64,000 nucleotides of DNA, taken from IMG/VR virus record IMGVR_UViG_3300037067_026010, positions 64,001 to 128,000 of that record; one strand, written 5' to 3'. The position numbers were made by a program, and so were the translations under genes. Source of the stretch: a virus (lineage: Duplodnaviria; Caudoviricetes). Under the pieces are notes generated by a model. The model was not told where the DNA came from, did no database searches, and saw nothing but the letters and a program-made list of their open reading frames with translations. This document shows positions 1,246-35,825 of this stretch, piece by piece. Positions within the stretch are counted from its first letter, which is position 1; each line of letters begins with the position of its first letter.

Positions 1246-2286
1246 CTACGCCTGGGCGAATTCTTCGGGGGTAACGACATCTGCCACGGCCACGGGCGGC
1301 GTGGGCCTGCCAGCGCGCTCCATCCGTCGTTGCCGCAGGGCTTCTTCGAGGGCGTGGGCTTTGCTCCGCGATCGCGTCCATTGATAAGTGCCGATGCCGG
1401 ATCCGACGGCCAGCAGCCCCATCAGCGTCGCCATGGCACCTTCCGTGTAATTTGCCGCGGTGCTTACCGGTTGCGGCGCGAGTTGGCCGAGACTGGGCAC
1501 AGAGATAGGCGCACCGGTAAACGGATTCGTATAATCCGCGCATTTGCTCCAGGCGTCGGCCAGTTGCTGCATGGTGGCACCGATTCCCGCACTCGCGGTT
1601 TTGGCAGGCGGCAGCATAGCGGCATATTGCTCGTTTAAAGCCGCACGGTACTCCGATTTGCTTTGTTGCAGTTTCTTCGCCAGTTCGGCTTTGCGGCGTT
1701 TTGCCAGCAGCCAGTCCACCAGTTTCCAACCGCCGAACACCGATAGTCCGGCAGCCCCTAAACCGATAGGGATGTACGCAGCGCTAAACCTGGGATCGGG
1801 GGCCGGCATCCCGGCAACATCCGCCGTACCGGGTGCAACCGGTTCCAATTTTTTTGCCAGCCAGCCGCTGATACCGTCGTCCGCGGCCTGTTTGGCCAGA
1901 TCCGCAGCAAGAGTGTCGAGAGAGCCATACTTGTAGGCTGGTGCACGCTGCGCCTGTAAGGCCAGCCGCCGTAAATCCGAATCGGGCGTCAGTCCCAGCC
2001 GCGCTTTGTCCTCGACATCCTGGGCTTCTTGCTGCACTACTGGGATACGCAAAGTGCGCGGCAGCACGGGACTGGCGTCCTGCGGTGGTTTTGCCCCCGA
2101 TAAGACGCGCATAAGCTCCAATGCTCCCCGGCCGACCATGCCGGCTCCAAGGGCCGCGCCGGACGCGTTGAGAACGGCTTTGAGCGCCTGGACCTTGCGG
2201 GCTTGTTCCGCAGCGTCCTCCGCCAGTTTGCGAAGCTCACGCGGCCCCACCTGGGGCAAGCGGGAAAGTGTAGGTGTCGGCAGCAT
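1246..2286 (-). CDS. Putative virion/internal protein with Gly/Ala-rich hydrophobic segments and K-x-A/S motifs
   Basis: 346 aa ORF with a GGAG RBS. Motifs KYGS, KQAA, KTAS, KCAD. Hydrophobic helices are followed by basic runs. Confidence 0.6.
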   Translation of the reverse strand: MLPTPTLSRLPQVGPRELRKLAEDAAEQARKVQALKAVLNASGAALGAGMVGRGALELMRVLSGAKPPQDASPVLPRTLRIPVVQQEAQDVEDKARLGLTPDSDLRRLALQAQRAPAYKYGSLDTLAADLAKQAADDGISGWLAKKLEPVAPGTADVAGMPAPDPRFSAAYIPIGLGAAGLSVFGGWKLVDWLLAKRRKAELAKKLQQSKSEYRAALNEQYAAMLPPAKTASAGIGATMQQLADAWSKCADYTNPFTGAPISVPSLGQLAPQPVSTAANYTEGAMATLMGLLAVGSGIGTYQWTRSRSKAHALEEALRQRRMERAGRPTPPVAVADVVTPEEFAQA

Positions 2287-2659
2287 CGTGACTACTCCCT
2301 GGAGTTTTACCGTTTGGCTGTTCGCCGTAGATTTGTACCCACTCTAGCCAGACGGTCAGGCCGTTGTTCGTAGTGTCCCACTGGTCCACGCGTTTATGCT
2401 GCATGTACCAGCCGTTGACGATACGGTCCATGATCTCGTCAAAATTTTTCTTCTCGTCCTCCGCCCATAAATGAAAGAGCCGAGAATGATAATCCATTCG
2501 AACCGGCAGCGCTTCGAATTCATCTTGCCGCAGGTTCGGAGGGATACCTCCGCGAAACGGGTAGCCGTCGGCGGTGCCAGGCCAATGCAGTTTATCGCCA
2601 TGCCCGGTTTCCGGACCACCTTGGTCCTGAAAATATTTAAGCATCGACGTTTCCGGCAT
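2237..2659 (-). CDS. Hypothetical phage protein (140 aa, start MPETSM)
   Basis: GAGGTG RBS upstream of ATG 2659; globular-looking composition. Confidence 0.6.
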   Translation of the reverse strand: MPETSMLKYFQDQGGPETGHGDKLHWPGTADGYPFRGGIPPNLRQDEFEALPVRMDYHSRLFHLWAEDEKKNFDEIMDRIVNGWYMQHKRVDQWDTTNNGLTVWLEWVQIYGEQPNGKTPGSSHDAADTYTFPLAPGGAA

Positions 2660-2673
2660 ACGACACCTCGTGC

Positions 2674-2705
2674 AAAACAGGGCGCCCCGGGCGAACCCGG
2701 GGCGC
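2674..2705 (-). terminator. GC-rich hairpin, possible intrinsic terminator
   Basis: Perfect 10-bp stem GCGCCCCGGG-TTCG-CCCGGGGCGC followed on the minus strand by CCTGTTTT; intergenic. Confidence 0.45.
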
Positions 2706-2721
2706 ATCTTGTCTATCAGCT

Positions 2722-2943
2722 TCAGCTAAGGACCTTCAGATCCTTTTCGGTAAAGCGGTTTCCACCGCTGGCAGCACCGTCTTGTCGGACGATGGCGAAG
2801 GGCCCGACCGTGCATTCGGGCGAGTTGCCTTGCCAATCCGTATAAGACGTATTGTCCAGCGCCGTAACTACACCAGTTGTCTTACGAAACTGGCTGTTTT
2901 GGCTCATGACACGAACGCGTTGCGCGACACTGGGAAGCGACAT
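2722..2943 (-). CDS. Small hypothetical protein (73 aa)
   Basis: GGAGGT RBS; fits the gene spacing. Confidence 0.6.
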   Translation of the reverse strand: MSLPSVAQRVRVMSQNSQFRKTTGVVTALDNTSYTDWQGNSPECTVGPFAIVRQDGAASGGNRFTEKDLKVLS

Positions 2944-2961
2944 AATTAAACCTCCATGTTT

Positions 2962-3327
2962 TTAGCGTGGTGTGAGCATAAACTCCGGCCGTGGTTGCCG
3001 GAAACCTCTGCGGGCGCGTGCCTGCCGTACCCGTTCCGCTTGGAGCTGGTAAGCCTGCATGAGCTCGCGGCGCTTTTCGTCTTCAACATCTGCCTCGGGC
3101 TCGGTTGCCTTTGCCGCGAGGTACCCGCCGCCGGCGCCGACGCCGATGGCACCAAGCATGCCAGCCGTCGTAAGACCGTAAGCAGTATTCGCCAATTCTT
3201 TCCAAAAACCGCGTTTCTCCAATAGGTCCACGGCGGTCTTGGCACGTGCTACCGTCTCTTCGGCCGATAACAATTCGTCCGTGCAACGGGCTAAAAATCC
3301 GAACTGGAAAGCTTCGTGCGGAGTCAT
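2962..3327 (-). CDS. Putative virion protein with a Gly-rich hydrophobic helix
   Basis: 121 aa; contains KTA and EKRG motifs and GMLGAIGVGAGGGYL. Confidence 0.6.
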   Translation of the reverse strand: MTPHEAFQFGFLARCTDELLSAEETVARAKTAVDLLEKRGFWKELANTAYGLTTAGMLGAIGVGAGGGYLAAKATEPEADVEDEKRRELMQAYQLQAERVRQARARRGFRQPRPEFMLTPR

Positions 3328-3336
3328 GGCGTGTCC

Positions 3337-3885
3337 TTAAATATCCAAGAGGAGGCCTGTCCTATTTTTCTTGCGTGGCGGCCTATGCAGCCGTACGTGC
3401 GAGGCATTTGCCGCTACGGCATCCCGGACGGCGTCCGGTGTAGCCGTTCTGCCGGTAAATTTTCCGCGCGGCAGACTTGGCAACTGCGGGTAACCAGCTG
3501 CGTCACTGCCGGCGCTGAGCGACACCGTAGCGTTGCGTCGATGTTTTGTCCAGTACGCCTGGATTGCCGGGTCGCTCGGGTCGCCCATAAATCGCGCTTC
3601 TTTGATCGTTTCCGACAGGTCGTTCGCGGCCTTTTCGCAGAGGCGAGCTTCTTCGCGCATCCACGGACTGTCGTCCGCCGCAATTTGCTTTGCGAACTGG
3701 CCCAACGCCCGCACACGTTCGAGGGCCTCCGCAGGGGTAATAACGCAATATTCATGCTCTTGCTTATTCTCGCGTTCGTCGTACATCGCGAGGAGGCCCT
3801 CGCACGCAAAAAATACAAGCTGTTTGTGCCGGCGCAGCGGGCCTTGCCGCGCACCAATGGACCAAGCGGGTTTCTGGGTAATCAC
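3337..3885 (-). CDS. Hypothetical phage protein (182 aa)
   Basis: GTG start with a GGAG RBS, immediately downstream of one copy of the 16-bp palindrome. Confidence 0.6.
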   Translation of the reverse strand: MITQKPAWSIGARQGPLRRHKQLVFFACEGLLAMYDERENKQEHEYCVITPAEALERVRALGQFAKQIAADDSPWMREEARLCEKAANDLSETIKEARFMGDPSDPAIQAYWTKHRRNATVSLSAGSDAAGYPQLPSLPRGKFTGRTATPDAVRDAVAANASHVRLHRPPRKKNRTGLLLDI

Positions 3886-3900
3886 GATAGCGTCTCCACA

Positions 3901-3916
3901 CGGTAATTAAGCACCG
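3901..3916 (+). promoter_or_regulatory. 16-bp imperfect palindrome, copy 1 (CGGTAATTAAGCACCG)
   Basis: Exact copy of a motif seen 7 times in the window. Confidence 0.7.
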
Positions 3917-4022
3917 AACCGTATGCATCTTATCGCATTTCCGACTGCAGAGCCATACGAAAACGGCTGCCGCGGACGAAGCCGGGCAGCCCGTATTTTA
4001 ACGCGGCGCACAGGTCGTAAGC

Positions 4023-4445
4023 CTATACCGGTGGTGCCGGTGGTGCCGGAGGTTGCGGTTGCGGCGCCAAGTTTGGCGAAGGTGGTGGTAAATTTGGCGG
4101 CGGCGGGTAGCTGGCCACGGTGAATCCAACCCATTGTTGGTAGAGCCGCACGAAAACCGCAAGGGCCGCCATAATCGGCGGCAGCAGCTTCTGCAACGTG
4201 CCATGTGCCGCCAACCATTCCGCGTCAATATGGCGCAATGCCTCCCACGACATCCAAGCTACGGCCAGCCAGAAGGATTTCGAACGGAGCAAACCGCTCA
4301 GATGTCTTCGCAGCCGGCGTAACCGGCGCAAGGCAATGCGGTCGGCATCCGCAGTAGTTGATGCACGATATGTCGTTTTTGCCCGACGTCGCTTCCGTTT
4401 AAGCGGATGCGTGGGCGGTACGTCGTGTAGGTGTGGGTCTTCCAT
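4023..4445 (-). CDS. Holin-like two-TM membrane protein with a Pro-rich tail
   Basis: Basic N-terminus, SKSFWLAV helix, second helix LLPPIMAALAVFVRL. Confidence 0.4.
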   Translation of the reverse strand: MEDPHLHDVPPTHPLKRKRRRAKTTYRASTTADADRIALRRLRRLRRHLSGLLRSKSFWLAVAWMSWEALRHIDAEWLAAHGTLQKLLPPIMAALAVFVRLYQQWVGFTVASYPPPPNLPPPSPNLAPQPQPPAPPAPPV

Positions 4446-4454
4446 GACGGCACC

Positions 4455-4964
4455 TCATTTTCGGTTTTGCGGGGCCGGCTGTGCGTACACAGGCTCCCAT
4501 TTACACGCTCCCGCATTACAGGTTTTTCGATAGTATAAAATACGACCTTGCTGTGCGGACGGTACCTTCGCCGGAACGGTTTCCGGTACTACAGCTTTTG
4601 GCAGCACCACTGGCAATTCGCCCGGATCTTGCGAGGCTGCTGGAGGTAACGGCAAATCCGGCACCACGGCATCACCGACCTCTTGTCCGGAGTCCGGAGC
4701 TGGTTTTGGCGGCTGCGGTGCCGGCGTCGGGCGGTCTGTATGCTTTAACAGGATCAACCCCATATCTGTGGCTGCCATGTCAAGATACACAGGATCTACC
4801 ACGATTGGCCCAGGTGTCGGGTGTGGTGTCGGGCTCGGCGTAGGCTGTGGTGCAGGTTGTGGCGTTGGTCGCGGCGGCACAGGCCTCGGACGACGATGAC
4901 AGCCACTTGCCGCAGGCCAAGCCAGGGCAAGCATAACGACAATTATGAGACAGCGGTTATACAT
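4455..4964 (-). CDS. Secreted Pro-rich protein with a signal peptide
   Basis: MYNRCLIIVVMLALAWPAASGC signal-like start; PTP-rich linker. Confidence 0.55.
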   Translation of the reverse strand: MYNRCLIIVVMLALAWPAASGCHRRPRPVPPRPTPQPAPQPTPSPTPHPTPGPIVVDPVYLDMAATDMGLILLKHTDRPTPAPQPPKPAPDSGQEVGDAVVPDLPLPPAASQDPGELPVVLPKAVVPETVPAKVPSAQQGRILYYRKTCNAGACKWEPVYAQPAPQNRK

Positions 4965-4975
4965 GGCACACTCCC

Positions 4976-6643: not shown

Positions 6644-6645
6644 AC

Positions 6646-7095
6646 TTAACCTCCTGCCGCCCAGGCAAATGCCTGATAGCATTCGATGACTTTGTTGCGC
6701 CGCTCCGGCGTAATCGGCCCGGGGTCGTCGCCGGCCCACTTCAACATGGCACTGTTCATGGCGTCGCTTAATCCCGGCACGGGCTTAAATTCAGCGCCAA
6801 AACGCAGATTGGCGACATTGTCGTTGTAAGCGCTTAACGTACCGGCGTCTTTGATCAAATTGCCGGCGTCGCGCTGAATCATCGCCGCCGTCGCAAGGCA
6901 GTAATTGGCAAATTCGATGCGTTGCGGGTGTTCCGCCATATCCCGCTTGATTCCGGCGACGAGCGTTTGCAGCTCCGCCACGGGTTCGGAGACGACGGAC
7001 GCCGTCGATGATTCTACGATATAAGGCGCTGCAAACGGCGCGCCGACGCCGACGACGATTAGGATTGCTAAAACCCAATTTAACAATGGTTTCAT
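6646..7095 (-). CDS. Membrane-anchored or secreted hypothetical protein
   Basis: N-terminal hydrophobic helix followed by a helical domain. Confidence 0.65.
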   Translation of the reverse strand: MKPLLNWVLAILIVVGVGAPFAAPYIVESSTASVVSEPVAELQTLVAGIKRDMAEHPQRIEFANYCLATAAMIQRDAGNLIKDAGTLSAYNDNVANLRFGAEFKPVPGLSDAMNSAMLKWAGDDPGPITPERRNKVIECYQAFAWAAGG

Positions 7096-7111
7096 GAGCC
7101 CTTTCCCTTTT

Positions 7112-9153: not shown

Positions 9154-9154
9154 G

Positions 9155-10572: not shown

Positions 10573-11313
10573 CTACGGGCTGCCGGTTGTGGCCGCACAT
10601 ATTTCTGTTGTGTTCGCATGGGTGGTAAAAGTGTTAATAGAGGGGGATAACCAGTCCGGAGCGCGTCTTGCCGATAATAATTCCGGATCTATGTTACGAC
10701 ACTGTTTGTGTAAGCGGCTTACCGCTGCTCGGATTAACGCATTCACGTAATGCCGCGAGCATTGCAATTCTTGCGTTATCTCGCCACGCGACATGCCGGC
10801 CAGCCGCATTTCGAGAGCCTGGCGCTGCCGAAGCGACAGCCTGGTAACCGCAATGCGGAAAGCGTGCCGACTTTCCTGCTGCAAAAGACGGCGTATCGGC
10901 GGATCCTCGTACCAGCCCTGTACCGAGGTTGCATAAATTTGCCGGGGCGGCCGGCGGCGACTGTTTGGCCTGCGGACATACTGTTCCGTGCCTTGCTGCT
11001 TCCTGGCGTTTTGAATGGCCTGGCGAATCCAATAGGCTGCATAATTTGCAAAACGGTGTCCCCGACCCTCCTGCCAGCGTTCGATAGCCACTATCAGCCC
11101 CAAGATGCCGTCTTGAAAAAGATCTCGTAGAAGTTCACGAGGTTGTCGCAGGCCGCGGGCTATGTGCCAGACAAGACGCTGATTGCACAAAATAAGTTGC
11201 TCTCTAGCCTTGCCACAACCGTTGTGGGCGGCCCGTAGATAGGCTAATTCTTCGTCCGCCGTCAAAGGCGTTGCCGTAGTCGCATTATCGAAGACGCACT
11301 TCCCTGCCGTCAT
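10573..11313 (-). CDS. Sigma-70 family RNA polymerase sigma factor (regions 1.2, 2 and 4)
   Basis: PLTADEE, AREQLILCNQRLVWHIAR, DLFQDGILGLIVAIERW, RFANYAAYWIRQAI, C-terminal HTH LSLRQRQAL...GMSRGEITQEL. ATGA overlap with the upstream gene. Confidence 0.9.
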   Translation of the reverse strand: MTAGKCVFDNATTATPLTADEELAYLRAAHNGCGKAREQLILCNQRLVWHIARGLRQPRELLRDLFQDGILGLIVAIERWQEGRGHRFANYAAYWIRQAIQNARKQQGTEQYVRRPNSRRRPPRQIYATSVQGWYEDPPIRRLLQQESRHAFRIAVTRLSLRQRQALEMRLAGMSRGEITQELQCSRHYVNALIRAAVSRLHKQCRNIDPELLSARRAPDWLSPSINTFTTHANTTEICAATTGSP

Positions 11314-12284
11314 GGTTTTCGCGGTAATTGCGGTAAAAGTTGCACAGGTTCGTGTTGCAACAGGCGATCGACCGGGTGCTGGACCATAGCGGACCCTCCG
11401 GCCAGATATGCCTGCGTCTGCCGTATCGAGCGTTGCGGATCCATCGCATTCTGCATCCGGTCCCACGTTTTGGCTTCGGCGATCGCCCTGTCGCCACGCT
11501 GTTTTATCGTAGCCGCGTGACGTTGTAAAGCGCCGAGTAGTCCTTCACCGGCGTTATAAACCGGTTTGCGTCCGCGCAGCAGCTCCGCCCCATGTCCGCG
11601 CGCTGCCTCGGCGTAGAAACTCTGCGCCGCTTTTACCGGTGCGGGCGGATTCAAAAAATCTTCAACGTCGCCAACGGTTTTCAGCCTCGTTGCACTGTCC
11701 GGATCAATATCGAGATCGATCCAATGCTCCGCCAGTTCCGACGGATCCGCGCCGTAATCTTTCGCGTAGTCAGCTTCGCGATAGACCTGATCCGCCGGCA
11801 CATTAAATCGCTGCATCAGCAGTCGCTGCAACGCCTTATTTTGCAATGGCGTCTGCTCCAGCGTCACCGCCGGCTTATTCGATACCAAATCGGATACGGC
11901 CCCGAGGGCGATGTCGTCCGCCGCGCCGGTCGCCAAGGCCATCGGCGATTTCAATAGGCCGAGTACGCTTGTTTTAGTCAGCGTTTTGGAGATATCCGCC
12001 GGTACATGTGTCTTGGGCAGATGAAAGCGATAGCCGGTCGGTCGATGGGTAATGCCATAGAACCGCTGCAGCTCCTCGTCGATGTACCAGTTTTCCGGAT
12101 TGGAAAGCATCAACTTGCGCAGCTGCGCGCTTTTGGCGGCATAAGCACGGTTGTCGGAGAGCTGCTGAATAAACTGTAGCTGCTCAAGAAGTGGGTGCCC
12201 TGCATCGGGCGGCAGTGCGGCCGTTTTCACAAAAGCCGCCGCGCACGCTTCTACTGCGGCACATTCCATAATGGTGCATGCCAT
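11310..12284 (-). CDS. K-x-A-punctuated protein containing a degenerate acyl-carrier-protein-like domain
   Basis: KTAA, KTS and KAA motifs. The internal segment LQRLLMQRFNVPADQVYREADYAKDYGADPSEL...IDPDSATRLKTVGDVEDFL follows the ACP pattern. Confidence 0.6.
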   Translation of the reverse strand: MACTIMECAAVEACAAAFVKTAALPPDAGHPLLEQLQFIQQLSDNRAYAAKSAQLRKLMLSNPENWYIDEELQRFYGITHRPTGYRFHLPKTHVPADISKTLTKTSVLGLLKSPMALATGAADDIALGAVSDLVSNKPAVTLEQTPLQNKALQRLLMQRFNVPADQVYREADYAKDYGADPSELAEHWIDLDIDPDSATRLKTVGDVEDFLNPPAPVKAAQSFYAEAARGHGAELLRGRKPVYNAGEGLLGALQRHAATIKQRGDRAIAEAKTWDRMQNAMDPQRSIRQTQAYLAGGSAMVQHPVDRLLQHEPVQLLPQLPRKP

Positions 12285-13023: not shown

Positions 13024-16000
13024 CTAGGGCGTCCAGTCCTCGTGCGGCGCCAGCAATACCGGCGCGCGATGCGCACCTGAAGCAAACTGGCCTTGCGAGC
13101 GAATTTTCGCAACGCGGCCGCGATAGATATCCGGCTCTCGCCATAGCTCGCGCCGCAGCTCGTCCGAGATTCCCGTACCGACTCTGCCGACGGTTTTACC
13201 GCCAGGCGTCAGCGCGTACTCGAAACCGCCGGCGCCGATGCCGCGGTACTTGCCGCGTCCGGGATAAACGCCGGTAATGTGCACATCAGATTCTTCAAGC
13301 AGCTTGCCTTTCTGCGGCACGCCTGTTGCCGGATGCAATACGATGCCCTCTCGCGTCAACGGGTGCTTGCTGCTGCGAATGCGATCCCACAGCTGTTGTG
13401 CAGATTCGGGCGTTTCCGCAGCCTCCGAAAGATGGAAGTAGTCCGCAGGCAAATGCGGCAGTACTTGCTCTAGGAGTTTGCGGCGCTCGGCGCGCGGTAG
13501 ATCCTGCACGGGTTGTTTGCCCAACTGTGGAATGTCGTACAGCATATTGCGCAACTGGATATTCCCGGCGCGCTGCTTTTCCAAGGCATTAGCGACGGTA
13601 GCATTGAGAATACCGCCCAATTCGTGCGCCGGCAGCACTTCGGGTTTCTTGCCTTCAGGATTTCGAAGTCCGTAAAGCTCGCCTTTCAATACCGTGCCTC
13701 GTAAGGCTTTCGGGATCGGCGTGGACGGCCTGCCACCAAACATTCGCTCGGAATATACGATAGGCTGGCCATTGTTTTTTGCCGTACGATACGAGGTCAC
13801 TTCGATACCGTCCTTGAGCAATTGCACGAGGCTGCTGGCACCGTCTACTTTGGCTTCGGCGGTCGACCCCGGCTGCATTTTGGCGAGAACGTTCTCGATC
13901 TGCTGCGCGGGTATTTTTTTGAAGTGGACTTTTTCGTGCTGTGCTCCCACCGGCACCGTCGGCGTCGTATTGACGAGTAGCCAGTTCTTCGATTTCGGAT
14001 CGCGCGGTTTGAGCAGTACGAACCGCTCCGGAAAGCGCGCGCTTGCTTGAGTAAAATGCACGGCGTCCGGTGTGACCTTCGTAATCAGCACTTGCCCCTC
14101 TTCCGCCTTCGAGACCGTGCCTTCTCCATAACCTTTTTCTATCCGGCCCTCGAAATCTTTGTAGCTATAGTCGTGCAGCGGTTGATGTACCGCGAGCCGT
14201 TTCTCGCCCGGTTTGGGCATCTCCTTGCGCATGGCCCAACTGTGTAGGCCGGAGGGGTCGCCGATTCGCAGATCAAAGTGCCGTTTTGCCCGTGCCGCAT
14301 CGTGCAATTGCCGCAGCAACGTGTAAACGTTTCCGGCCCGTAAATCCGTCAGTGGCTCTCCGTAATTCGACCGATCCGGTAAACCTGGAATTGGCGCTGC
14401 AGTCTTTGCCAGCGCGGGGGAGGGCGTTTGCACGAGTTCCAACATGCGCCGTAACAATTGCTGTCTGTCCTCGCCCTGAATATTTTTCAATGCCGCTGCG
14501 TCCCGATTTTCCGGAGTGACTTTTGCCGGATCAATCTTGCCATCGGCTGGTGCGGCAATCTGAGTCTTTTGAAGCCATGCATTCCAGGCCTTGTCCGCAG
14601 CTTCAGGCGTATCCACCTGTTGGCCGGTGGCTTTCACGTACTGCCGTTTGGCCTCGGCAAGGCGCGGATCGAGCTCATTTGGCGTGCCTGCGTAGGCATA
14701 TCGGCTTTCAGCCGTAGGCGCCAGCCACAGCCCTCGAGCGTTGTTGGCAGCGAAAGGCAGTCCTTCCGGTTTGGCCCGCTCCACCGGTATAAGCGGCGTA
14801 GTCGCTTCCTCGTCCGATTGCCGCAAGTAGTTTGGTCCCAAGGCCGCATGCGTTAATTCGTGCTCCAAGAGCGCTTGAGGTGCGCCAGGCGCCAGACTGA
14901 CTGTGCCCGTGCGGTGGTCCATCATACCCTGTCTACCGACCAGTGGCGTGTCCTTGGTGCCGGCGATTTCCTTATCCAGCGCCGACGGACGCCACCGACT
15001 AAAGCGTGGGTTATGTCCTGGTACTGCCAATTGTGCCTGTGCTTTCTGCACGGCCGCGTCGAGGCCACCCGGAGCTTTCGCATAATAGGGTGCAATTTGC
15101 TGTCGCAGCGTTGTCGTAAAATCCTTCGGCGCCGGCGTCACCGTTGCTCCGGCCGGGGGTACAACGGCCGGCTTGGCACCGGCGCCTGTCGGCCCCTTCA
15201 CCGGGGCCGCGGTACTGCTGGGAGTACCATTGCCAGAGGCAGGCGCAGCGCTGGCCCCTTCCGTTGCCGGAGCTTTTGGCGTAGTTGCCTCGGCAGCGGT
15301 TTTGGCCGACGGTTCGGCATTGCCGGTAGGCCACCACGCTTCAATGGCCAAATGCTGGTATGTCTGCCCGTCATATTCGCGATTACGCCAGCGCTTTTCG
15401 AACTCCGCAACCGACAGATAGCCATATTGCTTGCGGTCCCCGGCCATGGCGGGATCGGCAAAGTAAACGCTCTCGTCATCCATGCCGATGACGACGCTGT
15501 AGTGGCCGCTCTGCAGCTGCTTATAGTCCGCAGGGTCTCCCCAGGCTTGCAGCGAGACGATGACCGGATGCCGCTTATCGAGAATAGCACGCAACCCGGC
15601 GAGATCCAGGTTCTCGTGAAAGAGCACCTCCAACCCGAGCTTCCGTGCCGTTTGCACAAGATCCTCCGGATCCGTGCCCTTCTGCTTGCCGCTTTCCGAA
15701 CGTTCCGCCAATTGCGCTTCGGTGACGCTCAGCCCGTTGCCTTCCGCCACTTCGCGTAATGCACCGGGACCGCAGGTGCAATCGGTCTGCTGCCGAAGAT
15801 GCGGTACAGGCGCTTGGACGTTTGCGTCTCGCATGCCGATCGGTTCTTCGGCATCCTCGGGGCCGCGCGCCGACGGGCCGTTGCCGTCAGCTGCTGCGGG
15901 TCCGCCGTGGCTACCGGGCATCAGATTCTGATCTAAGGGCACTTGATCGGCCTGTCGGGTAACGCGGGTGCTGGTCATTCGCGGATCGTCCGTGCACATC

Positions 16001-16520
16001 TTGCTATCCAGGGCCGCCGCCTTCGTAACCTTCCCATCCTTGGTCCAATCGCCGAACTCGGCGAGCGTCATTGCCGTTACGCTGCCGAGACCCTTCCAGC
16101 CCTTCGAGTAGTTCGCCAGATAGACCTGCCGTGCTTCGTCCTCCGACAGACATCGATAATGCATTTGTGCTCGTCGAACTTGCCGGTGGCCGGAGCGTTC
16201 TGGTTGACGACATGCACCAGCTCGCTTTCCAGATGCGGACCTATGAAAACATCTAAATGGTCTTTGTCGCGGCCGAGGATGCCCTTGAAATAACCATAAT
16301 CGTTGGCCATGGTTATAGACCAGGTTTTGCCGTTCCTGTCCGTGCCGGAGCGTTCGCTGCCCTTGGGATTTTCGATGGCTATGCCAAAACCGGCCCAAGA
16401 AACGTGCCCCTTCGCATAATTACCGGCTTCGATCTGCCCCGGCGTGGGCTCGGTATTTACGGCGGCGCGGGCTTGCCGGAGTTCTTTTTCGTCCAACGCT
16501 CTCTTTTCGCGCACCAGCAT
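13024..16520 (-). CDS. Polyvalent protein (InPase + C39-like peptidase + zincin HEXXH + LigD 3'-phosphoesterase + ATP-dependent DNA ligase) with a 1-nt frameshift at ~16154
   Basis: InPase: GNYAKGHV...IENPKGSERSG...DYGYFKG..GRDKDHLDVFIG...FDEHKC. C39: RQQTDCTCGPGAL...GHYSVVIG...FADP. Zincin: LEHELTH. Phosphoesterase: HDAARAKRHFDLRI...HSWA...RLAV..PLH..SYKDFEG.I..GYGEGTV. Ligase: AKVDG, LKGELY, LYDI, EGIVL and OB-fold GRVGTG. Adding one G gives a single 1165-aa frame from ATG 16520. Confidence 0.85.
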
Positions 16521-16537: not shown

Positions 16538-17038
16538 TTAATCCACGGACAGCCAACGCCCCTGAAAGTAGATCGGCTCCCCAAGCTGCGCGATCAACTG
16601 CAGCTCGTTTTGCAGCCAATCCACATGCGCCTCCGTCTCGTCGAGAATTTTCTGCAATACGGCGTAAGTCCCAAAATCCTTGGCTGCCAAGGCTGTCTGC
16701 GTCCAACCCGTATACTGGTTCGCCACCTCCACTTCGCCGTCCAAGTCCTCGGAGAATTGCGTCTTTAAGTTGCCCTCGACCGCCTCGATCACTGACGGAG
16801 CCGTCTTTGGCGCGCCGTCCAGGAAGATCATCCGATCGGCCACCAGCTGCGCATGCCCCCTCTCCTCCGTAGCTTCCTTCTCGTACATCTGCGCCAGTTT
16901 TTTGACACCATTTCCCTGCCAATACACTGCCCGTGCCCAGTAATGATTGGACACCGTCATTTCGGTGTTCAGCGCCTGTTGTAGCACTGTTAATAGTTCG
17001 CCGTTCTGCTGTATCGTCGTTTGCTGCTTCTCGGCCAT
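16538..17038 (-). CDS. bfr: Bacterioferritin / ferritin-like protein
   Basis: LNTEMTVSNHY, EATEERGHAQLVADRMIFLDGAP, DLDGEVEV and ILDETEAHVDWLQNELQLIAQLG match the Bfr four-helix bundle. Confidence 0.88.
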   Translation of the reverse strand: MAEKQQTTIQQNGELLTVLQQALNTEMTVSNHYWARAVYWQGNGVKKLAQMYEKEATEERGHAQLVADRMIFLDGAPKTAPSVIEAVEGNLKTQFSEDLDGEVEVANQYTGWTQTALAAKDFGTYAVLQKILDETEAHVDWLQNELQLIAQLGEPIYFQGRWLSVD

Positions 17039-18516: not shown

Positions 18517-20634
18517 TCACCCGCTAACATGCATCGCTAAATCTTTCAACCGCGTCGCTTCCTCCAGCGACATGCCTCCGTTCGAGGCAATACGCTCTGG
18601 TGTTGCTGCGCTGCTTTGCAGCAAGGCTAAGTTGTCCGGCGGCAATCCGCGTACTAATGGCATCAGTTGCGCGTCCGGCAGTTGCAGCAGCTGCGCCCGT
18701 GCCTGCGGGTTGTTCAGCACTTGATCCATTTTATCCGCATCCACACGGCCGTCGGGGCCAATTAACTGCGTAACGTCGAATGCTTGCCCAGGCGCAGCGG
18801 CAGGGCTGGTCGATGTCCCAGCTTGTGCAGTCGGTGCTTTGGGCGCAGCTTGCCCGCCAAAGAGTTGCCGGGCTTGGGCATAAAGCCCCTGTGCGCCCTG
18901 TTGTGCGCCCTGGCCAAAAACTCCGCCAAGTGCACCGCCGGCTCCGGCCACGCCCAAGCCGAGGAGCGTCATCAGTACGCTACCTATGCCGCCTTCTCCG
19001 CCTAATAACGAGATGAGTCCGACGAGGCCCAACGGCAGACCGATGCCGAGCATCCATTTGGATTCTGTCGGCAGCTGCCCCCACATCTCCATAAACCCCT
19101 GTGGGTCTTGCTTTGCCATATCCGGATTGGCCTTGGCCAGGTTCTCCTGGCTCGGTTGCACCAAATCCCCGGGCAGCTTGCCCTGTTCCAACATGGCGCG
19201 ATCGATACCGTAGCGTTTGGCGATTATCGCCCGCTGATCTTGCGGAATTTGTATATTCTTGGCCAGTTCCATGGCTGTCGCCGAATCCCCTTTGCTCAAG
19301 GCATCGTGCGCTTGCCGCAATAACGCCTGCTGATCCGGCGCTATTTGTGCATCGGCAGTTTGCTCCGCGGTTTCTTCGCCTCGAATGCGCTGGTAATTCG
19401 TGTGTTCCTCGGGCGTCATGGACACGGATTGCGGCGCTGGCGACGGTTGTTGCTTTTGCTTCGAGAAATTCATCGCCTGCTGCAGCGAATCTTCATCATC
19501 TTCACGCCACAGGGTGTTCTTTGCGTTCTCGCGACGGAGATCGAGTATCTCCTTATTTCGCTCGGCGATACGCTGCTGTGCGTCGGGCGCAACCGGCACT
19601 GTAATATTGGCCGGCGGCTTCGGTGCGGGTGCCGGGGCCGGCGTTGGCACTGGTGCTGGTGCTGGTGCTGGTACCGGCGGGGTGGCAGACGGTGGTTTCA
19701 CTGCCGGTGTCGTCGCGCCGACAGCAGGAGACACCGGAGGATGCACCATATTCGGCAGATCGGGCAAGGCTGCTCCGGTAGCTGCGGCCGGATCGGGCTG
19801 CAAAAACCCTGCTGCGGTCTTTTCGGTCCGTCGGCGGCGCGATTTCATCTGGTTGTATAGCCCGTAGAGACCAGCAGCACCTAAACCAGCACCTGCGTAC
19901 GCCGGCCAGTATTTCGAAAGATGCTCCGTTACACCCCCCGCAGGTGCCGGTGCTGAAACTTCTCCGGCTCGTTGGGAATCCGCTGCAGACGTTTGCGGAG
20001 CGGCTGCTGGAGGATTATCACCGCCCATCAGCGAAGCCGCACCCAGGCCCCCTGCCGTCATGGCAGCCCCGCTCATTAAATGCCCTGGCAGTGCCCTGGT
20101 AAAGGCAGGGGCCGCTGCTAATGCGGCAGGTACCGCTGCGGGGACCGCTGCGGCCGCCCCGGCTAACAGCCCGGTAGCGCCACTTACGCGTCCGGCGGTA
20201 CGTAATGCCGCTTCGCCGCGCGAATCAACATCGGGGATGTTCGGATTTGGCGAGCGCCAGGGATTGTACCACTTGTTTAGATAATAGCCCCAGCTCGGGT
20301 CGACGTCGTCGAGGCTGCATTTGACGAGCTCCGCCCTGAAATCCGGCATCGCTGCAGCCGCTTTCTGAAGGCCGCAGCCGATTTCCTGTTCGCTGCAGCC
20401 GGTTTCGCCGCATGCCTGCAAGAACCCGGCAAACAACGGATACCGGGAGCGAAAACGTCTTAATGCAGCCTGTTTGGCTTGCTGCTTGAACTTATCTCCG
20501 CTCCGATCGCGGCCGGAAACGCTTTCCCACGCCTGTTCGCCGCTTAATGCCGGCAGACTCGGTACCTTGTAACCGGCGGGTCTTTCACCGAAGGCAAACG
20601 GTCGCGTCGCCATAGTGCCCAAACTGCTCGGCAT
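18517..20634 (-). CDS. Large Ala/Pro/Gly-rich putative virion (internal/ejection) protein with K-x-A motifs and hydrophobic helices
   Basis: KAAA, KCS and KTAA motifs; TM-like segments GAGLGAAGLYGLY and LGIGLPLGLVGLISLLGG; GGAGGG RBS. Confidence 0.6.
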   Translation of the reverse strand: MPSSLGTMATRPFAFGERPAGYKVPSLPALSGEQAWESVSGRDRSGDKFKQQAKQAALRRFRSRYPLFAGFLQACGETGCSEQEIGCGLQKAAAAMPDFRAELVKCSLDDVDPSWGYYLNKWYNPWRSPNPNIPDVDSRGEAALRTAGRVSGATGLLAGAAAAVPAAVPAALAAAPAFTRALPGHLMSGAAMTAGGLGAASLMGGDNPPAAAPQTSAADSQRAGEVSAPAPAGGVTEHLSKYWPAYAGAGLGAAGLYGLYNQMKSRRRRTEKTAAGFLQPDPAAATGAALPDLPNMVHPPVSPAVGATTPAVKPPSATPPVPAPAPAPVPTPAPAPAPKPPANITVPVAPDAQQRIAERNKEILDLRRENAKNTLWREDDEDSLQQAMNFSKQKQQPSPAPQSVSMTPEEHTNYQRIRGEETAEQTADAQIAPDQQALLRQAHDALSKGDSATAMELAKNIQIPQDQRAIIAKRYGIDRAMLEQGKLPGDLVQPSQENLAKANPDMAKQDPQGFMEMWGQLPTESKWMLGIGLPLGLVGLISLLGGEGGIGSVLMTLLGLGVAGAGGALGGVFGQGAQQGAQGLYAQARQLFGGQAAPKAPTAQAGTSTSPAAAPGQAFDVTQLIGPDGRVDADKMDQVLNNPQARAQLLQLPDAQLMPLVRGLPPDNLALLQSSAATPERIASNGGMSLEEATRLKDLAMHVSG

Positions 20635-30069: not shown

Positions 30070-30099
30070 GCTACGCCAGGCGATGATTTTGAATTGAGA

Positions 30100-31470: not shown

Positions 31471-33815
31471 TACTGCTTCACCGTCAAAAGTACCTGCACG
31501 TTGCCGATTTCCAAAAGCTTGTTCGAGGTTCCGCCGGTGTCGTTCGCTACGCCGGTAAGCTCGATATCTAGCAAGTCGCCCGCAGCCAAGCCCGTGGGTG
31601 TGATCGTAAAATTGTAATCTGCAAAGGCATCCGTGATGGTCTGTGCCGCCGTGGCGCAGATATCGGAACCGACACCTGCCTCGCCGTCGCCCTTGAAGCA
31701 CGTCGCGTCGATGGTCTGTGCTGTGGCAACGTTGCCTGTCATGCGACACTTCACCCGCAACGTCACGGTCCCGCCCGCCGCGTACTCGGTCGGCAACGTA
31801 AAGAGGAATCGAGCCTTGTCCGTTTTTGAATCCCCGTTAGCCGCTTCGCCCACCAGTTTCGGCGATGCCGATCCGGACGTGCCATAGGTCAATCCGAACG
31901 CGCCCGCCGGGGTTCCGGCAGCGGTCCCAAGCAACGCGCCCGTGCCCGTGACCCGCAAATTATCGATCGCGACTGTCTGAATTTCTACAGCGTTGGACTC
32001 TGTCGGATACCACTTGGAATCGTAATAATCATAGCGAAAACGAATCAGTTGCCCGACAACACCGGTTACCGCTACTCCGATATTTCCGCTAGTGCCAAAC
32101 GCACAAGGAATGCCCGGAATCACTTCGATAGAGCCAGAAAACCCAGTGTCCCCAGAGATCGGCTGATTGATCGTGGCGGTAACGTTATCGACCGCAACCG
32201 CCGATGTGCCGGCGGGATAGGCGTCTCCCGTGCCGCTCGCCGCAGTAACCGTGATCGTTTTTGCGGCAACATCATAGGCTGTCACCGTCATTCCGACACG
32301 ACTCTTTGGTGCGCCATCGTTCCAGTAGATCGTCGGCGTCGAAGAAGTCGTGAAAGCATGGTCCCGATTGTTCAGCGTGATGACTGCCGTGCCTGCGGTG
32401 TTCACGCTCGTACCGTTCCAACCGATATGGAAACACGGAGCCGATGGAGTAATTGTCGCGGCACTTGTTACAGGCGAACCGATTGGTTGCTCGATATAGC
32501 CGGAGATAAACGGATTCGATCCACCAGTGCTTGTCCATGCTAAGCGTTTGACGGATATCTCACCCACGTCGAGAGTAAACGTTCCAGTCATCGACGATGG
32601 TATAATACGAATCCGATGCCCGCTGGTCGTGGCTACGCATTTCGCCGTGAAAGTAAAAGTTTCACCACCGGCAGGCAGCGTGTTAGCGAGAATATCCAGA
32701 TTAAACTGAGTGCCAAATCCGTACACCAAAATATGATCGGTAGCGACGGTGGAAGTAAACGCTTTGATTTTTACCGTCACTAAATACGCCTCGCCTGGAA
32801 GAAGTGGACGGTCCATGCTCGCGATAGTCTGCGAAAGCTCGAACGTGGCATTCGTGGTCCTCACCGTCCCTGATTCGACCCATGTGAAATTAGTGGCGGT
32901 CCAGTTAGCCAGGTCAGTATCAGCTGTCCAGCTTGGCGTTTTCAAACATTCGTTGGAGATGACGCTCAGTCCGCGAAATAGTGGCCGCAATCCTCTGACA
33001 GTGACATAACCCGTATTGGAGTTTGCTCTAAATGAAATACCACTATACTCGCCCTGTAGCGAGATTTCCTGCGGGGAGCCCGAAACGATATTGTTGCCAA
33101 TCAGGATAGGTCCAGGCGTACTTACATCTGTTGACGGCCTGCAATAATCCCGCAGTTCAGTCCCTATTTTATAGCCTTTAGTCGTATGGCTTGGGCGTAT
33201 ATTCTGCTGGGGTAGATTCGGAACCGTGCTAGTCCCATCGCCGCGAACTAAGATGTCAAGATCGGCGTCATACACCCATTCGCCAGCAAGTGGAACTACG
33301 TTGGCAAGCGCTGCTGTCGTGCCATAACGCTGCACGATAGAACCGGCTAACGCCGCGTCCGCGTTGAGTATCGCCGCCTTGTTCGCCTGTGGCACGGCGA
33401 TATCGTCCGGCACGATCGCCGCCGCCGCGTCGAGTTGCGCAGGGGTAGCCGTACCAGCATCCTGCTTGGCTGCCAGCGCCGCATCCAGATTTTGCACCTC
33501 GTACAGCTGCTCCGAGGACAGTTCCACTGCGCTGTCTTCGATAAACTGCAAGAGGCCCGCCGCGGTCAGAACTTGAGAAACCGCGCTGCCTACGGCGTGT
33601 GTCGCGGGCGTGGTGCCTTCAATGCCCCTGGTTACGGTAAACGTGTTGGTCGCGGCATCCACCGCAGTTACCAGCAACAGCTCGTCGTCGATGAGAATCC
33701 TGAAGTCGCCTGCAGCCGGGAACAACGCGACACTTGCAACATACACGGTAGTCGCATAGGTTGTCGTAATCGGCAGACTTAGCGTGGTAACTGCATTATT
33801 GGCAAGCCGTTCCAT
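31470..33815 (-). CDS. Tail fibre / receptor-binding-like structural protein
   Basis: 781 aa, Thr/Gly/Ala-rich, modular. PLAGEWVYDAD..LVRGDG resembles a fibre N-terminal motif. The first ~95 aa are shared with 33832-34131. Confidence 0.6.
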   Translation of the reverse strand: MERLANNAVTTLSLPITTTYATTVYVASVALFPAAGDFRILIDDELLLVTAVDAATNTFTVTRGIEGTTPATHAVGSAVSQVLTAAGLLQFIEDSAVELSSEQLYEVQNLDAALAAKQDAGTATPAQLDAAAAIVPDDIAVPQANKAAILNADAALAGSIVQRYGTTAALANVVPLAGEWVYDADLDILVRGDGTSTVPNLPQQNIRPSHTTKGYKIGTELRDYCRPSTDVSTPGPILIGNNIVSGSPQEISLQGEYSGISFRANSNTGYVTVRGLRPLFRGLSVISNECLKTPSWTADTDLANWTATNFTWVESGTVRTTNATFELSQTIASMDRPLLPGEAYLVTVKIKAFTSTVATDHILVYGFGTQFNLDILANTLPAGGETFTFTAKCVATTSGHRIRIIPSSMTGTFTLDVGEISVKRLAWTSTGGSNPFISGYIEQPIGSPVTSAATITPSAPCFHIGWNGTSVNTAGTAVITLNNRDHAFTTSSTPTIYWNDGAPKSRVGMTVTAYDVAAKTITVTAASGTGDAYPAGTSAVAVDNVTATINQPISGDTGFSGSIEVIPGIPCAFGTSGNIGVAVTGVVGQLIRFRYDYYDSKWYPTESNAVEIQTVAIDNLRVTGTGALLGTAAGTPAGAFGLTYGTSGSASPKLVGEAANGDSKTDKARFLFTLPTEYAAGGTVTLRVKCRMTGNVATAQTIDATCFKGDGEAGVGSDICATAAQTITDAFADYNFTITPTGLAAGDLLDIELTGVANDTGGTSNKLLEIGNVQVLLTVKQ

Positions 33816-33831
33816 ATTTCTACCCTTCGGA

Positions 33832-34131
33832 TTATTCGCCCATTACCCGTAAAATAAACGCTCGAAGTCCTTCCACCGTCAGCACTTGCGACACGAAGGC
33901 GTCGATCTCGTGCGTCGTCGGCGTCGTCTCCTCGATGCCGCGCGTCACGGTAAAAGCGTTTTCGCCGGCGTCGACCTCCGTCACCAACATCAGTTCGTTG
34001 TCGATCCGGATGCGGAAATTGCCTTGTTCCGGAAACAAAAAGACGGAATCCACGTAGATAATTTGCTCGAAGTCGTTGGGGATGGCTTGAGCAAGATACG
34101 AGACTGCATCGTTAGCAAGTTCTTCAGCCAT
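33832..34131 (-). CDS. Stand-alone paralogue of the fibre N-terminal domain
   Basis: FPEQGNFRIRIDNELMLVT...FTVTRGIEETTPTTH versus FPAAGDFRILIDDELLLVT...FTVTRGIEGTTPATH. Confidence 0.75.
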   Translation of the reverse strand: MAEELANDAVSYLAQAIPNDFEQIIYVDSVFLFPEQGNFRIRIDNELMLVTEVDAGENAFTVTRGIEETTPTTHEIDAFVSQVLTVEGLRAFILRVMGE

Positions 34132-34256
34132 GGCAACTCTTCTTTTTAATAGGTCAAAAATTCACTCAGGTCGGCAATGCCAAGCTAACAAACGTGGGAC
34201 TGCAACCCGCAGCGCTACCGAAAGTCCCTCCGCGCCAATATCCACCATCTTAGTGT

Positions 34257-35216
34257 TTAGGGCACAGGCTTTAAGCTGCCTACCGCCGCGCCCCGCGAAC
34301 CCTTTCGACAACCCGGCCCGCATTTGGAGCCCATACGCTGCGGTTTTGCGCAGGCTTCGCCGCCCTTTGAGCCGATGGCGATGATACGCGAAATAGCCGT
34401 GCCGGTCCGCTTCGGCCCGCCGTCGCCCGGCCCGAAGCCGTGCTCCTTGCGGAGTTTTTCCCAGTCGGGGGCGGCCGCCCCTTTACCCCATAACGGCAAT
34501 GGCCGTCCCTGTGCATCTGTCGCAGGGTTATATAGCGTGCTAAAATCGGGAAAACGCTTGATGGCCGGCATGTGTAACCGCGAGATTGCCCCCGCGCCCT
34601 GGTCGATGGCGGATCCGAGACCGGCACCGAACGCTTCAGGTGGCGCTTTTCCCTTCATAGCACTGCCAATTTGTCTGACGGCATCCTGTAAACCGGATGC
34701 AGCCCGCGATAATGTCGTCGTCCTACCGGCATACTGCGCACGTCCTGCGGCAGCTGGGGCAGCCCGAGGAGCCGCAGCTTCTTTCTCCTCCTCTTCATCG
34801 CTACGCCGCCGCTTGCCGAGCAGCCGTTGCAAGGCCAGCAGCCCTAAAGCGCCTCCGCCCGCGCCAAGCCCTACCTTGCCCGCTGTCGGCATGGCACCCC
34901 AGGCTTGGCCGAGATTGCCGCCTAGGAGTTTATTCCAAGCTTCGCCATAACCTGCCGGCTCCGCCGCAGGAGCGGGAACAGGCGCAGGGGCGGCTGCACC
35001 AGCTGCCGCCGGGGGCGACAATCTGTCCATCGGTGATTCCGGCAAAGCCGGCACGGGGCTGGGTACTTTCGGCACGGACGCCTGAAAAGCCCTCGCTGGA
35101 GCCTCCTCCAGGGTCTGCCGCGCTTGATTAAGCATATTCGGCTGCGCGGCCGCCGGTTGTCGTAAGGCCGCTTTAACGCGAACCTGGGCGGCTTTAAAGA
35201 GTTTGCTGTCGATCAT
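34257..35216 (-). CDS. Ala-rich putative virion protein with K-x-A motifs
   Basis: FKAA and EKEAA motifs; GLGAGGGALGLLAL followed by KRRRSDEEEE. Confidence 0.55.
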   Translation of the reverse strand: MIDSKLFKAAQVRVKAALRQPAAAQPNMLNQARQTLEEAPARAFQASVPKVPSPVPALPESPMDRLSPPAAAGAAAPAPVPAPAAEPAGYGEAWNKLLGGNLGQAWGAMPTAGKVGLGAGGGALGLLALQRLLGKRRRSDEEEEKEAAAPRAAPAAAGRAQYAGRTTTLSRAASGLQDAVRQIGSAMKGKAPPEAFGAGLGSAIDQGAGAISRLHMPAIKRFPDFSTLYNPATDAQGRPLPLWGKGAAAPDWEKLRKEHGFGPGDGGPKRTGTAISRIIAIGSKGGEACAKPQRMGSKCGPGCRKGSRGAAVGSLKPVP

Positions 35217-35255
35217 GGTTCAACCTTCCGTGGCTGGTTGTGATAGCTAAAAAAA

Positions 35256-35825
35256 TCACCTGCAGAGGCCGGCGCCGAAGTCTGCAGCCTTTGGCATCGT
35301 CGGGAGCTGCTTCTCTTGGGGCTTGGCCTTGCGGCGTTGGGCGTTATGCCTGATGGCCAGCGTAATCTTGGCTTGGCGATCGATATCGGGCGTGTCGTCT
35401 TCGACGGCTAACGCGGATTTGGCATGCTCGGGAAGGCCGGTGCGCTTTGTTTCGGCAAAATCCTCGGCAGAGCTCGGCGAGATATCGCCGGCTATCTCCT
35501 GCACCTTCTTAGAGGGGGCTGTCATTTCGCCCTTCTGGACGGCATGCACCATGCCGAAAAGACGCTGCTGCGCCTTAGAAGTGCTTTTGGCAGTCTTTGC
35601 CAGCAGCTCTGTGGCTACGGCTGCGCCGAATTGCGCGGCCTTCATCGGTTGCACCGGCGCGGCTGCCGTCAAGATGCCGGTAGCTGCCTGCCCGGCCCGT
35701 TGCGCCGCCTGGGCCATCGTAGGCTTCTTGGGACCCTTGCTGTGCTCGCGAAGGGCCATCGCGGGTGTCATACGCACATCAGCCTGCTTGTTGTGCATAG
35801 GACGCAGTAAATCGAGAACGGTCAT
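35256..35825 (-). CDS. K-x-A protein with a DUF3008-like segment
   Basis: KSTSKAQQRLFGMVHAVQKGE...AEDFAETKRTGLPEH lies between KTA and KSA; also KQA and two KAA motifs. Confidence 0.6.
   Translation of the reverse strand: MTVLDLLRPMHNKQADVRMTPAMALREHSKGPKKPTMAQAAQRAGQAATGILTAAAPVQPMKAAQFGAAVATELLAKTAKSTSKAQQRLFGMVHAVQKGEMTAPSKKVQEIAGDISPSSAEDFAETKRTGLPEHAKSALAVEDDTPDIDRQAKITLAIRHNAQRRKAKPQEKQLPTMPKAADFGAGLCR

Follow-up and report, generated by a model that had tools for sequence, protein, structure and literature searches.

A Lys-x-Ala word in the head proteins and polyvalent proteins of an environmental phage clade is a candidate prohead-protease code

Genome and context

The DNA considered here is a stretch of 64,000 nucleotides, hereafter the window, that corresponds to bases 64001-128000 of one 210,569-bp virus contig (IMG/VR record IMGVR_UViG_3300037067_026010; 57% GC), and its subject is a short protein word, Lys-x-Ala followed by Ala or Ser, that recurs in the head-assembly module upstream of the window, in a set of candidate cargo proteins within it and between the domains of a large polyvalent protein. 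The gene for the polyvalent protein is not far from the head module, flanked by tail-fibre-like genes on one side and by an RNA polymerase fusion on the other. Nearly all of the 281 genes, which were called with our own codon-usage caller, are on the minus strand, and no record of a cultured phage matched 20 kb of the window in a near-identity search.

Expected word counts were derived for each protein from its own composition. In the notation used below a point stands for any residue, K.A being K-x-A, and K-[QTEA]-A-A is referred to as the strict word. One relative, G012 (69% GC, with few Lys), on which the gene caller performed poorly, was omitted from the conclusions.

A first-pass annotation of the window had proposed that K-x-[A/S] words punctuate at least eight of its proteins (named here by the lowest window coordinate of their open reading frame, ORF; Table 1) and act as cut signals in modular precursors of packaged and injected effectors. 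Every ORF and word that it listed for the eight proteins is present, but K-x-[A/S] as there defined is not enriched, and the core of the system sits upstream of the region that had been marked out, in the head-assembly module.

The head module and a candidate prohead protease

On the minus strand the head module runs from the portal-side gene 50 (777 aa) through genes 47 and 46 to gene 45, the candidate prohead protease, and on to the scaffold-like gene 44, two small proteins (genes 43 and 42) and the capsid gene 41 (phrog_2522, E 8.8e-5), and this gene order is syntenic across 72 IMG/VR loci. Pfam and PHROG scans left most of the head-module proteins without a family. The product of gene 44 is acidic, with a net charge of -23, and carries seven K.A[AS] words.

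The prohead protease that was sought in the genome appears, from its modelled fold, to be gene 45. The AlphaFold2 (AF2) model of its product, made with 25 homologs in the alignment, has a mean predicted local distance difference test (pLDDT) score of 72 and a gp21/assemblin fold (MEROPS S77, S21) at residues 55-240; its best match in an exhaustive alignment against the PDB is T4 gp21 (5jbl_A; Z 9.3, root-mean-square deviation 2.7, 127 of 165 residues), followed by the proteases of varicella-zoster virus (Z 6.8), human cytomegalovirus (5.1) and Kaposi's sarcoma-associated herpesvirus (4.0). A Foldseek search of the PDB with the same model gave nothing at E<=0.001, gp21 surfacing only in the exhaustive alignment, a profile search of PDB sequences gave nothing at E<=10, and neither gene 45 nor its homologs have a Pfam family at E<=0.01; the sole PHROG match is phrog_2774, of unknown function. 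Because Foldseek and the sequence searches gave nothing, it is by fold and gene order that gene 45 is assigned as a candidate protease. Residues H62, H103, S164, H224 and S236 are invariant in the alignment of the 25 homologs. Homologs of gene 45 number more than 1000, many of them on contigs of 200-230 kb.

The scaffold-like and portal-like proteins and the gp21-fold protease carry the word most densely, and in the last of these the protease domain is bracketed by conserved K-x-A words at residues 53 and 253. It also tends to lie near the N-terminus, with K.A found within the first 58 residues of 10 of 11 head-module proteins as against 35 of 149 proteins elsewhere (p 1.2e-5). The capsid protein, which was checked for the same word, has it as K25-x-A27, invariant in 48 of 48 relatives.

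Enrichment of the word

In a scan of the whole proteome K.AA ranks first among all 8000 words of the form a-x-b-c (62 seen against 29.8 expected, p 1.6e-7), and KQAA and KTAA rank near the top of the four-letter words. The excess is specific for Lys, R.AA standing at 0.84x, and for Q, T, E or A in the middle position. The strict word is found 11 times in the eight proteins of the first-pass annotation against 1.4 expected, a count that none of 3000 shuffles reaches; the middle set was picked from the same data, and the unbiased result is the one for K.AA. The looser K-x-[A/S] was seen 33 times in these eight proteins against 36.3 expected, falling below expectation in ORF 13024 (4 against 10.2), and ORFs 2962 and 35256 have no word excess of their own.

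The distribution along the genome is uneven, with 26 of the 42 strict sites lying within genome positions 41.6-85.4 kb. In genes 40-53, which make up the head module, there are 25 K.A[AS] words against 5.5 expected and 13 strict words against 1.4, an enrichment of 4.5 to 9x. The cargo genes of the window (genes 55-79) hold 12 strict words against 1.3 expected, and the remainder of the window 4 against 2.0. The tail module of the same genome stands at 0.63x, and the tail and replication modules together span 0.6-1.5x. A repeated nucleotide word was considered as a cause at the level of DNA and rejected: codon use at the sites mirrors that of the genome, and since it is ordinary in this way the signal acts at the level of protein.

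Conservation in relatives

In family alignments of the head-module proteins, with 24-57 relatives each, there are several sites at which the Lys and the Ala are kept at 85-100% and the middle residue is variable. The joint conservation of K.A averages 0.43, the second highest of 63 pair types, as compared with 0.18 for E.A and 0.23 for R.A. The signal is 3 to 5x enriched in the head modules of three relatives; the head homologs of G001 and G002 have 31 words against 6.0 expected and their tail homologs stand at 0.64x. The complete genomes of G004 and G010 have a peak of 3-4x around the protease gene and 0-0.6x elsewhere. Furthermore, the cultured Salmonella phage Arash encodes a homolog of the protease (gp222, 37% identity over half the length), and the Arash head proteins gp220, gp223 and gp225 contain 7, 6 and 5 words against 0.6, 0.8 and 0.4 expected. 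The capsid protein of Arash, gp226, has the word as K27-E-A.

The conservation of sites that could be looked for on the basis of the first-pass annotation is divided: those of the head module are kept, but most of those in ORFs 1246, 2962 and 9155 do not hold their position in G001, the one IMG/VR relative with counterparts of ORFs 1246 and 2962. In the case of ORF 9155 the KEAA at residue 17, a YKAA and the residue-230 site have all been retained by the homolog that the contig of the closest relative carries, and in G001 the residue-230 site alone is kept. G001 carries a different polyprotein, made of a 2H-SAK, two Nudix domains and a DUF5661, and K-x-A-[AS] words stand between its domains.

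The polyvalent protein of the window

The domains of ORF 13024 are arranged in the order of a C-terminal piece of an InPase, a C39-like Cys peptidase, a zincin-like region with the motif HELTH, a LigD-type 3'-phosphoesterase and an ATP-dependent ligase. The HELTH motif is at residue 435, in a region that has no Pfam match and in which the confidence of the AF2 model, built with a 34-row alignment, is low; from about residue 600, that is in the phosphoesterase-ligase part, pLDDT is above 90. A full-length homolog search with the protein, and one with its C39 region, returned only the protein itself, and a search for related loci with it found no relative.

All four K-x-A words of this protein lie in, or in the case of residue 48 at the edge of, segments with pLDDT<50, which comprise 29% of its residues. 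The KTAA at residue 288 opens a linker of ~60 aa rich in Ala, Pro, Thr and Ser, and the KTAA at residue 587 sits three residues ahead of a mobile phosphoesterase-ligase module that begins PIPGLPDR. The first-pass annotation had placed such words at the edges of domains, which holds for residues 48, 288 and 587: these stand between Pfam envelopes and in or at the edge of low-pLDDT linkers. It does not extend cleanly to the border that had been drawn between EKRA and the InPase, where both the word and the N-terminal part of the InPase are present, but in a different reading frame. Of two further labels, 'ACP-like' and 'DUF3008-like', neither has Pfam support, and what survives is a PHROG-conserved core in ORF 35256 that is bracketed by KTA and KSA.

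The reading frame through all the domains is not intact, as the main frame holds only positions 100-135 of the InPase profile and a -1 frame change near 16150 (between ATT ATC GAT and GTC TGT) is required to join the two halves. There is no obvious slippery heptamer at this point, and the frame change may stem from an indel in the assembly, from recoding or from a genuine disruption of the gene. The InPase is intact in the related proteins P0123 and P0131.

A mobile cassette with marked borders

Residues 591-1046 of the polyvalent protein constitute a module that an exhaustive profile search found in ~150 cluster representatives of 443-2913 aa, in which it is N-terminal, internal or C-terminal and the homology starts at query residues 583-594. 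No pair is more enriched than K.A over the ten residues that lead into the module, where it is found in 63 of 87 windows (67 against 3.4 expected, p 3e-62), and K.A again ranks first over the eleven residues that follow the module (58 of 95, p 2e-45); K.S is likewise enriched in the flanks. The 37 copies of the module that start a protein are without an upstream K.A. Several phosphoesterase-ligase proteins have a leader of 10-37 aa that ends in K-x-A directly ahead of the module, and no shared leader sequence was seen among them.

The interior of the module has the opposite character, K.A being the most depleted of 278 pairs across 122 modules (64 against 281, 0.23x), with K.S at 0.43x and R.A at 1.35x. 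In six polyvalent proteins, for which the ligase envelopes were taken from homology blocks, the recognised domains contain no K.A at all, where 15.7 would be expected (p 1.5e-7). The proposal that cut sites would allow domains to be added between them has strong comparative support, with K-x-A found on both sides of the cassette in dozens of differently built proteins and purged from its interior. It is this pattern in cargo proteins, of marked cassette borders and avoidance in the interior, that is new here.

All four of the phosphoesterase-ligase proteins whose contigs were examined come from the same locus and the same clade, and each either neighbours the RNA polymerase fusion or shares a contig with the closest homolog of the protease. 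At this locus in relatives the same cassettes appear fused or as separate genes, and the polyvalent proteins of relatives mix 2H-SAK, C39, SNF2, GNAT, Nudix, DUF5661 and InPase domains. On two contigs (L122 and L123, which carry P0125 and P0185) one phage encodes 2H-SAK and GNAT by separate genes and the other within a single 2913-aa fusion, an arrangement that shows fusion and fission of cassettes.

It could be argued that the word has no function at all and reflects an Ala-rich, Lys-containing composition of helical or low-complexity segments together with shared ancestry. The proteins named by the first-pass annotation are indeed 12-20% Ala, the loose K-x-[AS] is at expectation in them, many head-module sites are in L-E-K-x-A-A contexts, and homologs are non-independent samples. 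The expectations, however, were calculated within each protein, Arg does not have the same effect as Lys, the tail and replication modules of the same genome show no comparable excess, and K.A is both the most enriched pair at the borders of modules and the most depleted inside them, with the linker sites in Pro-rich, non-helical contexts. A signal without function is accordingly the least credible of the explanations considered and seems very improbable.

A proposed prohead-protease code and its alternatives

The word K-x-A, followed by A or S and with Q, T, E or A in the middle, is taken here to be the recognition code of the prohead protease of this clade, a reading to which we give a probability of about 0.7. 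It starts from the enrichment, location and conservation of the word, its flanking of modules, its avoidance within them and the fold of the protease, all of which are observations. The head-assembly and cargo proteins would be loaded into the prohead and then trimmed by the gene 45 protease, which would remove N-terminal leaders and chop the scaffold. The polyvalent protein of the window would be cut at its three linker sites and released as separate modules, namely the InPase piece, the C39 peptidase, the zincin-like part and the phosphoesterase-ligase, and these would probably be delivered to the host together with the DNA. The analogy with gp21 (L/I-x-E, cut after the Glu) and assemblin (V/L-x-A, cut before a Ser) would place the cut after the Ala. 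As for the idea of a cut signal on injected effectors, the comparative support for Lys-x-Ala separating modules is strong, whereas cleavage, packaging and injection keep the conditional form given to them here.

A boundary signal need not be cut, and the word might instead be a short motif for docking or for targeting to the capsid, with the scaffold, the portal or the protease as its binding partner, or a site of lysine modification. Enrichment at N-termini and module borders would suit a targeting tag equally well, and cleavage at K-x-A is something we infer; the motif-rich head proteins of Arash were detected in virion preparations at 80-100% sequence coverage, which is uninformative on cleavage either way. 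The depletion inside modules (0.23x across the ligase cassettes and none in the six polyvalent proteins) would be expected if stray sites were harmful and fits a protease better than docking. Furthermore, the tandem sites in the scaffold-like proteins resemble the cleaved propeptides of SPN3US and T4, and the form of the word, with Lys at P3, Ala at P1 and Ala or Ser at P1', parallels the sites of gp21 and assemblin. An uncut signal is for these reasons considered unlikely.

A genuine cleavage code might also have another reader, be it the C39 or zincin domain of the polyvalent protein, a phage enzyme of the Trypsin_2 type or an enzyme of the host. The polyvalent protein contains two peptidase-like domains, the C39 and the one with the HELTH motif, a Trypsin_2 protease is encoded in G004, G007 and G010 and also in the closest relative, where it lies near the polyvalent gene, and self-processing of polyvalent proteins by a metallopeptidase has been proposed (PMC5512222). 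Set against this, C39_2 is absent from the complete genomes of G004, G007 and G010, of which G004 and G010 keep the head-module enrichment, and Trypsin_2 is absent from the present genome and from G012; on this presence and absence across relatives the idea that either of them reads the code universally was rejected. The known sites of C39 enzymes are Gly-Gly. The proteins in which the sites are densest, scaffold-like, portal-like and gp21-fold protease, are moreover the classic substrate set of a prohead protease, and another reader is held to be improbable.

Several points weigh against the assignment of the word to the prohead protease. The eight proteins in which the loose K-x-[AS] pattern was first noticed show no enrichment of it, and some of the head-module excess is in helical L-E-K-x-A-A contexts and could reflect coiled-coil composition. 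In G004 and G010, which are more distant relatives with complete genomes, the region upstream of the RNA polymerase is sparsely marked and shows little enrichment, and in the membrane-type proteins 1246, 2962 and 9155 the majority of sites do not keep their positions in G001. The phosphoesterase-ligase proteins are homologous and belong to one clade, so that the counts in their flanks and interiors are not independent events. As the InPase is interrupted by the frame change, the polyvalent copy of the window may be partly defective. The modelled gene 45 protein resembles gp21 by fold only, with no match in Pfam or to PDB sequences, and the cutting, the enzyme that does it, the bond, the packaging and the injection are all steps that we infer.

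Beyond the prohead-protease code itself, we would put at even odds the wider proposition that a very large clade of ~200-kb environmental phages runs a plug-and-play cargo system with cassettes bounded by this code. Phosphoesterase-ligase, 2H phosphoesterase, Nudix, InPase, GNAT, SNF2 helicase and peptidase cassettes would be fused, split and reshuffled at one hypervariable locus, and selection would purge the Lys-x-Ala code from their interiors. With every cassette bounded by the code of the prohead protease, that enzyme would therefore double as a general cargo-release enzyme.

Comparison with known systems

The prohead proteases of SPN3US, phiKZ and T4 use short P3-x-P1 motifs as their cut sites in head and ejection proteins, the propeptides often carrying several cleavage sites, and the motifs that have been defined experimentally for T4, phiKZ, 201phi2-1 and SPN3US all end in Glu (L/I-x-E, S/A/G-x-E, A-x-E) (PMC5694885, PMC10052503). 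As in the systems of T4 gp21, phiKZ gp175 and SPN3US gp245, the gene for the gp21-fold protease is beside a scaffold-like gene and close to the major capsid gene, and a P3-x-P1 word is found across scaffold, portal, protease and candidate internal or ejection proteins, often near the N-terminus and in multiple copies; RNA polymerase subunits are likewise encoded next to candidate cargo genes, as in this group. The word differs in being Lys-x-Ala followed by Ala or Ser rather than ending in Glu, and in that it also separates enzyme modules in giant polyvalent proteins. In the open-access papers that were searched no Lys-x-Ala specificity of a prohead protease was found.

The sites of the herpesvirus assemblins (MEROPS S21) read V/L-x-A followed by Ser, with the cut between the last two. 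The fold is related, the protease domain is bracketed by sites in both cases, and should the cut follow the Ala there would be an Ala at P1 and a Ser or Ala at P1' in the phage proteins as well. Unlike assemblin, however, the phage word has Lys and not a hydrophobic residue at P3, the protease is not fused to the scaffold and there is no similarity at the level of sequence. If the assignment is right, Lys-x-Ala would be a new specificity for the prohead-protease family, one that is nearer to the Ala-Ser sites of assemblin.

Polyvalent proteins such as DarB and DdrB of P1 resemble those described here in that several unrelated effector-type domains are found in one polypeptide (here InPase, peptidases, 2H phosphoesterase, Nudix, GNAT, SNF2 helicase and phosphoesterase-ligase), the gene lies among virion genes and the architecture varies widely. 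Iyer, Burroughs, Anand, de Souza and Aravind (2017) proposed that such proteins are processed by a metallopeptidase domain of their own and described no linker motif (PMC5512222). In contrast to that model, the borders here carry the K-x-A word of the head proteins, the interiors are purged of it and relatives without C39 keep the code. How the domains of polyvalent proteins separate after delivery would, if this is correct, be answered by a shared linker code that is read by the capsid protease rather than by a peptidase of their own.

The proteins detected in virion preparations of Arash, which is a distant phage, include RNA polymerase subunits, a sigma factor, ligases and a pyrophosphatase (PMC10585845). 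That paper gives protein coverage only and contains no information on cleavage, nor does the phage G multi-omics paper. Arash is cultured, has the same motif pattern and has existing virion liquid chromatography-tandem mass spectrometry data, and the idea can be tested on it now. The signature of enriched borders and depleted interiors could be used to predict the packaged and processed, or injected, proteome of uncultured jumbo phages from sequence.

Other candidate cargo proteins and neighbouring genes

The remaining candidate cargo proteins are listed with the main features in Table 1. The first K-x-A-A of ORFs 9155, 11310, 13024 and 18517 is at residue 17, 20, 48 and 54, and in ORF 18517 K.AA is found 3 times against 0.7 expected, with no K.A followed by a residue other than Ala or Ser against 3.4 expected. 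The proteins of ORFs 1246, 2962, 9155, 18517 and 34257 are rich in Gly and Ala and have Gly-zipper-like hydrophobic segments that are often followed by a run of Arg and then by the word; in ORF 34257 the KEAA is preceded by a hydrophobic segment, then KRRR and a run of acidic residues. From these sequence features they may act in ejection, by insertion into a membrane, and not as enzymes. A counterpart of these Gly/Ala-rich proteins in a relative has a weak match to Gly-zipper_Omp. The protein of ORF 11310 has no Pfam family, and the PHROG matches of ORF 35256 are at residues 133-191 of a 243-aa ORF.

Table 1. Features of the window and of the adjoining head module; positions are those of the window unless marked as genome positions
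Feature	Position	Strand	Basis or remarks
Gene 45, candidate prohead protease, 487 aa	genome 45618-47081, 18 kb upstream of window	-	AF2 fold, gene order
RNA polymerase beta-beta' fusion, 2375 aa	genome 58116-65243, ends at window 1243	-	
Membrane-type protein, 346 aa	1246..2286	-	KQAA 1882-1893, KTAS 1591-1602
Membrane-type protein, 121 aa	2962..3327	-	single KTA
Hint/intein-containing protein, 555 aa	4976-6643	-	
Gly-rich membrane-type protein, 386 aa	9155..10315	-	KEAA 10256-10267 (residue 17), KAAA 9617-9628 (residue 230)
Sigma-70-like factor	10573..11313	-	Pfam Sigma70_r2 E 5.7e-15; phrog_351
324-aa protein	11310..12284	-	KTAA 12216-12227 (residue 20); also KSA, KTS, KPA and KAA words
Polyvalent protein, main frame, 1046 aa	13024..16164	-	Pfam LigD_N, Peptidase_C39_2, DNA_ligase_A_M, InPase
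KTAA, residue 587 of polyvalent protein	14395..14406	-	inside pLDDT<50 segment 577-591
KTAA, residue 288 of polyvalent protein, after C39	15292..15303	-	inside pLDDT<50 segment 282-345
KAAA, residue 48 of polyvalent protein, directly after InPase C-terminal piece	16012..16023	-	edge of pLDDT<50 segment 50-129
InPase N-terminal part, 147 aa, starts MLVREKRA	16080..16520	-	other frame; Pfam InPase positions 2-98, E 1.5e-39
Ferritin/Dps-like protein	16538-17038	-	
Ala/Gly/Pro-rich protein, 705 aa, with Gly-zipper-like hydrophobic segments	18517..20634	-	words in the row below
Words of the 705-aa protein	20464-20475 (KQAA); 20353-20364 (KAAA); 19810-19821 (KTAA)	-	KTAA after RRRR stop-transfer-like stretch
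Ala/Gly-rich protein, 319 aa	34257..35216	-	KEAA 34773-34784, KGAA 34473-34484
189-aa protein	35256..35825	-	PHROG core bracketed by KTA and KSA; no K-x-A-[AS] word
393-aa protein near terminase gene	genome 204153-205334 (L118:8153-9331), outside window	+	12 K.A, 7 K.A[AS] against 2.6, 0.5 expected

Also among the candidate cargo genes are those for a ferritin/Dps-like protein, a Hint/intein-containing protein and the sigma-70-like factor, which is not far from the RNA polymerase fusion. The RNA polymerase fusion that ends at the start of the window is ~1460-1510 aa in eight of ten complete relatives and 624 and 636 aa in the other two. The matches of relatives skip ~520 residues of the query, which suggests, from the sequence comparison, an intein-like insert, and the RNA polymerase of one relative has a faint LAGLIDADG match. 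Trypsin_2 (DegP-like) serine proteases of relatives are encoded at L119:20939-22615, G004:99319-99756, G007:84200-84637 and G010:175551-175994.

Finally, the 393-aa protein near the terminase gene ('gene 272') belongs to no Pfam or PHROG family, and a look-up in the ESM Atlas returned only viral clusters without a name. It is probably a further substrate of the Lys-x-Ala code, to judge by its words, and its presumed homologs in G004 (393 aa) and G010 (390 aa) have 7 words against 0.6 expected and 6 against 0.5.

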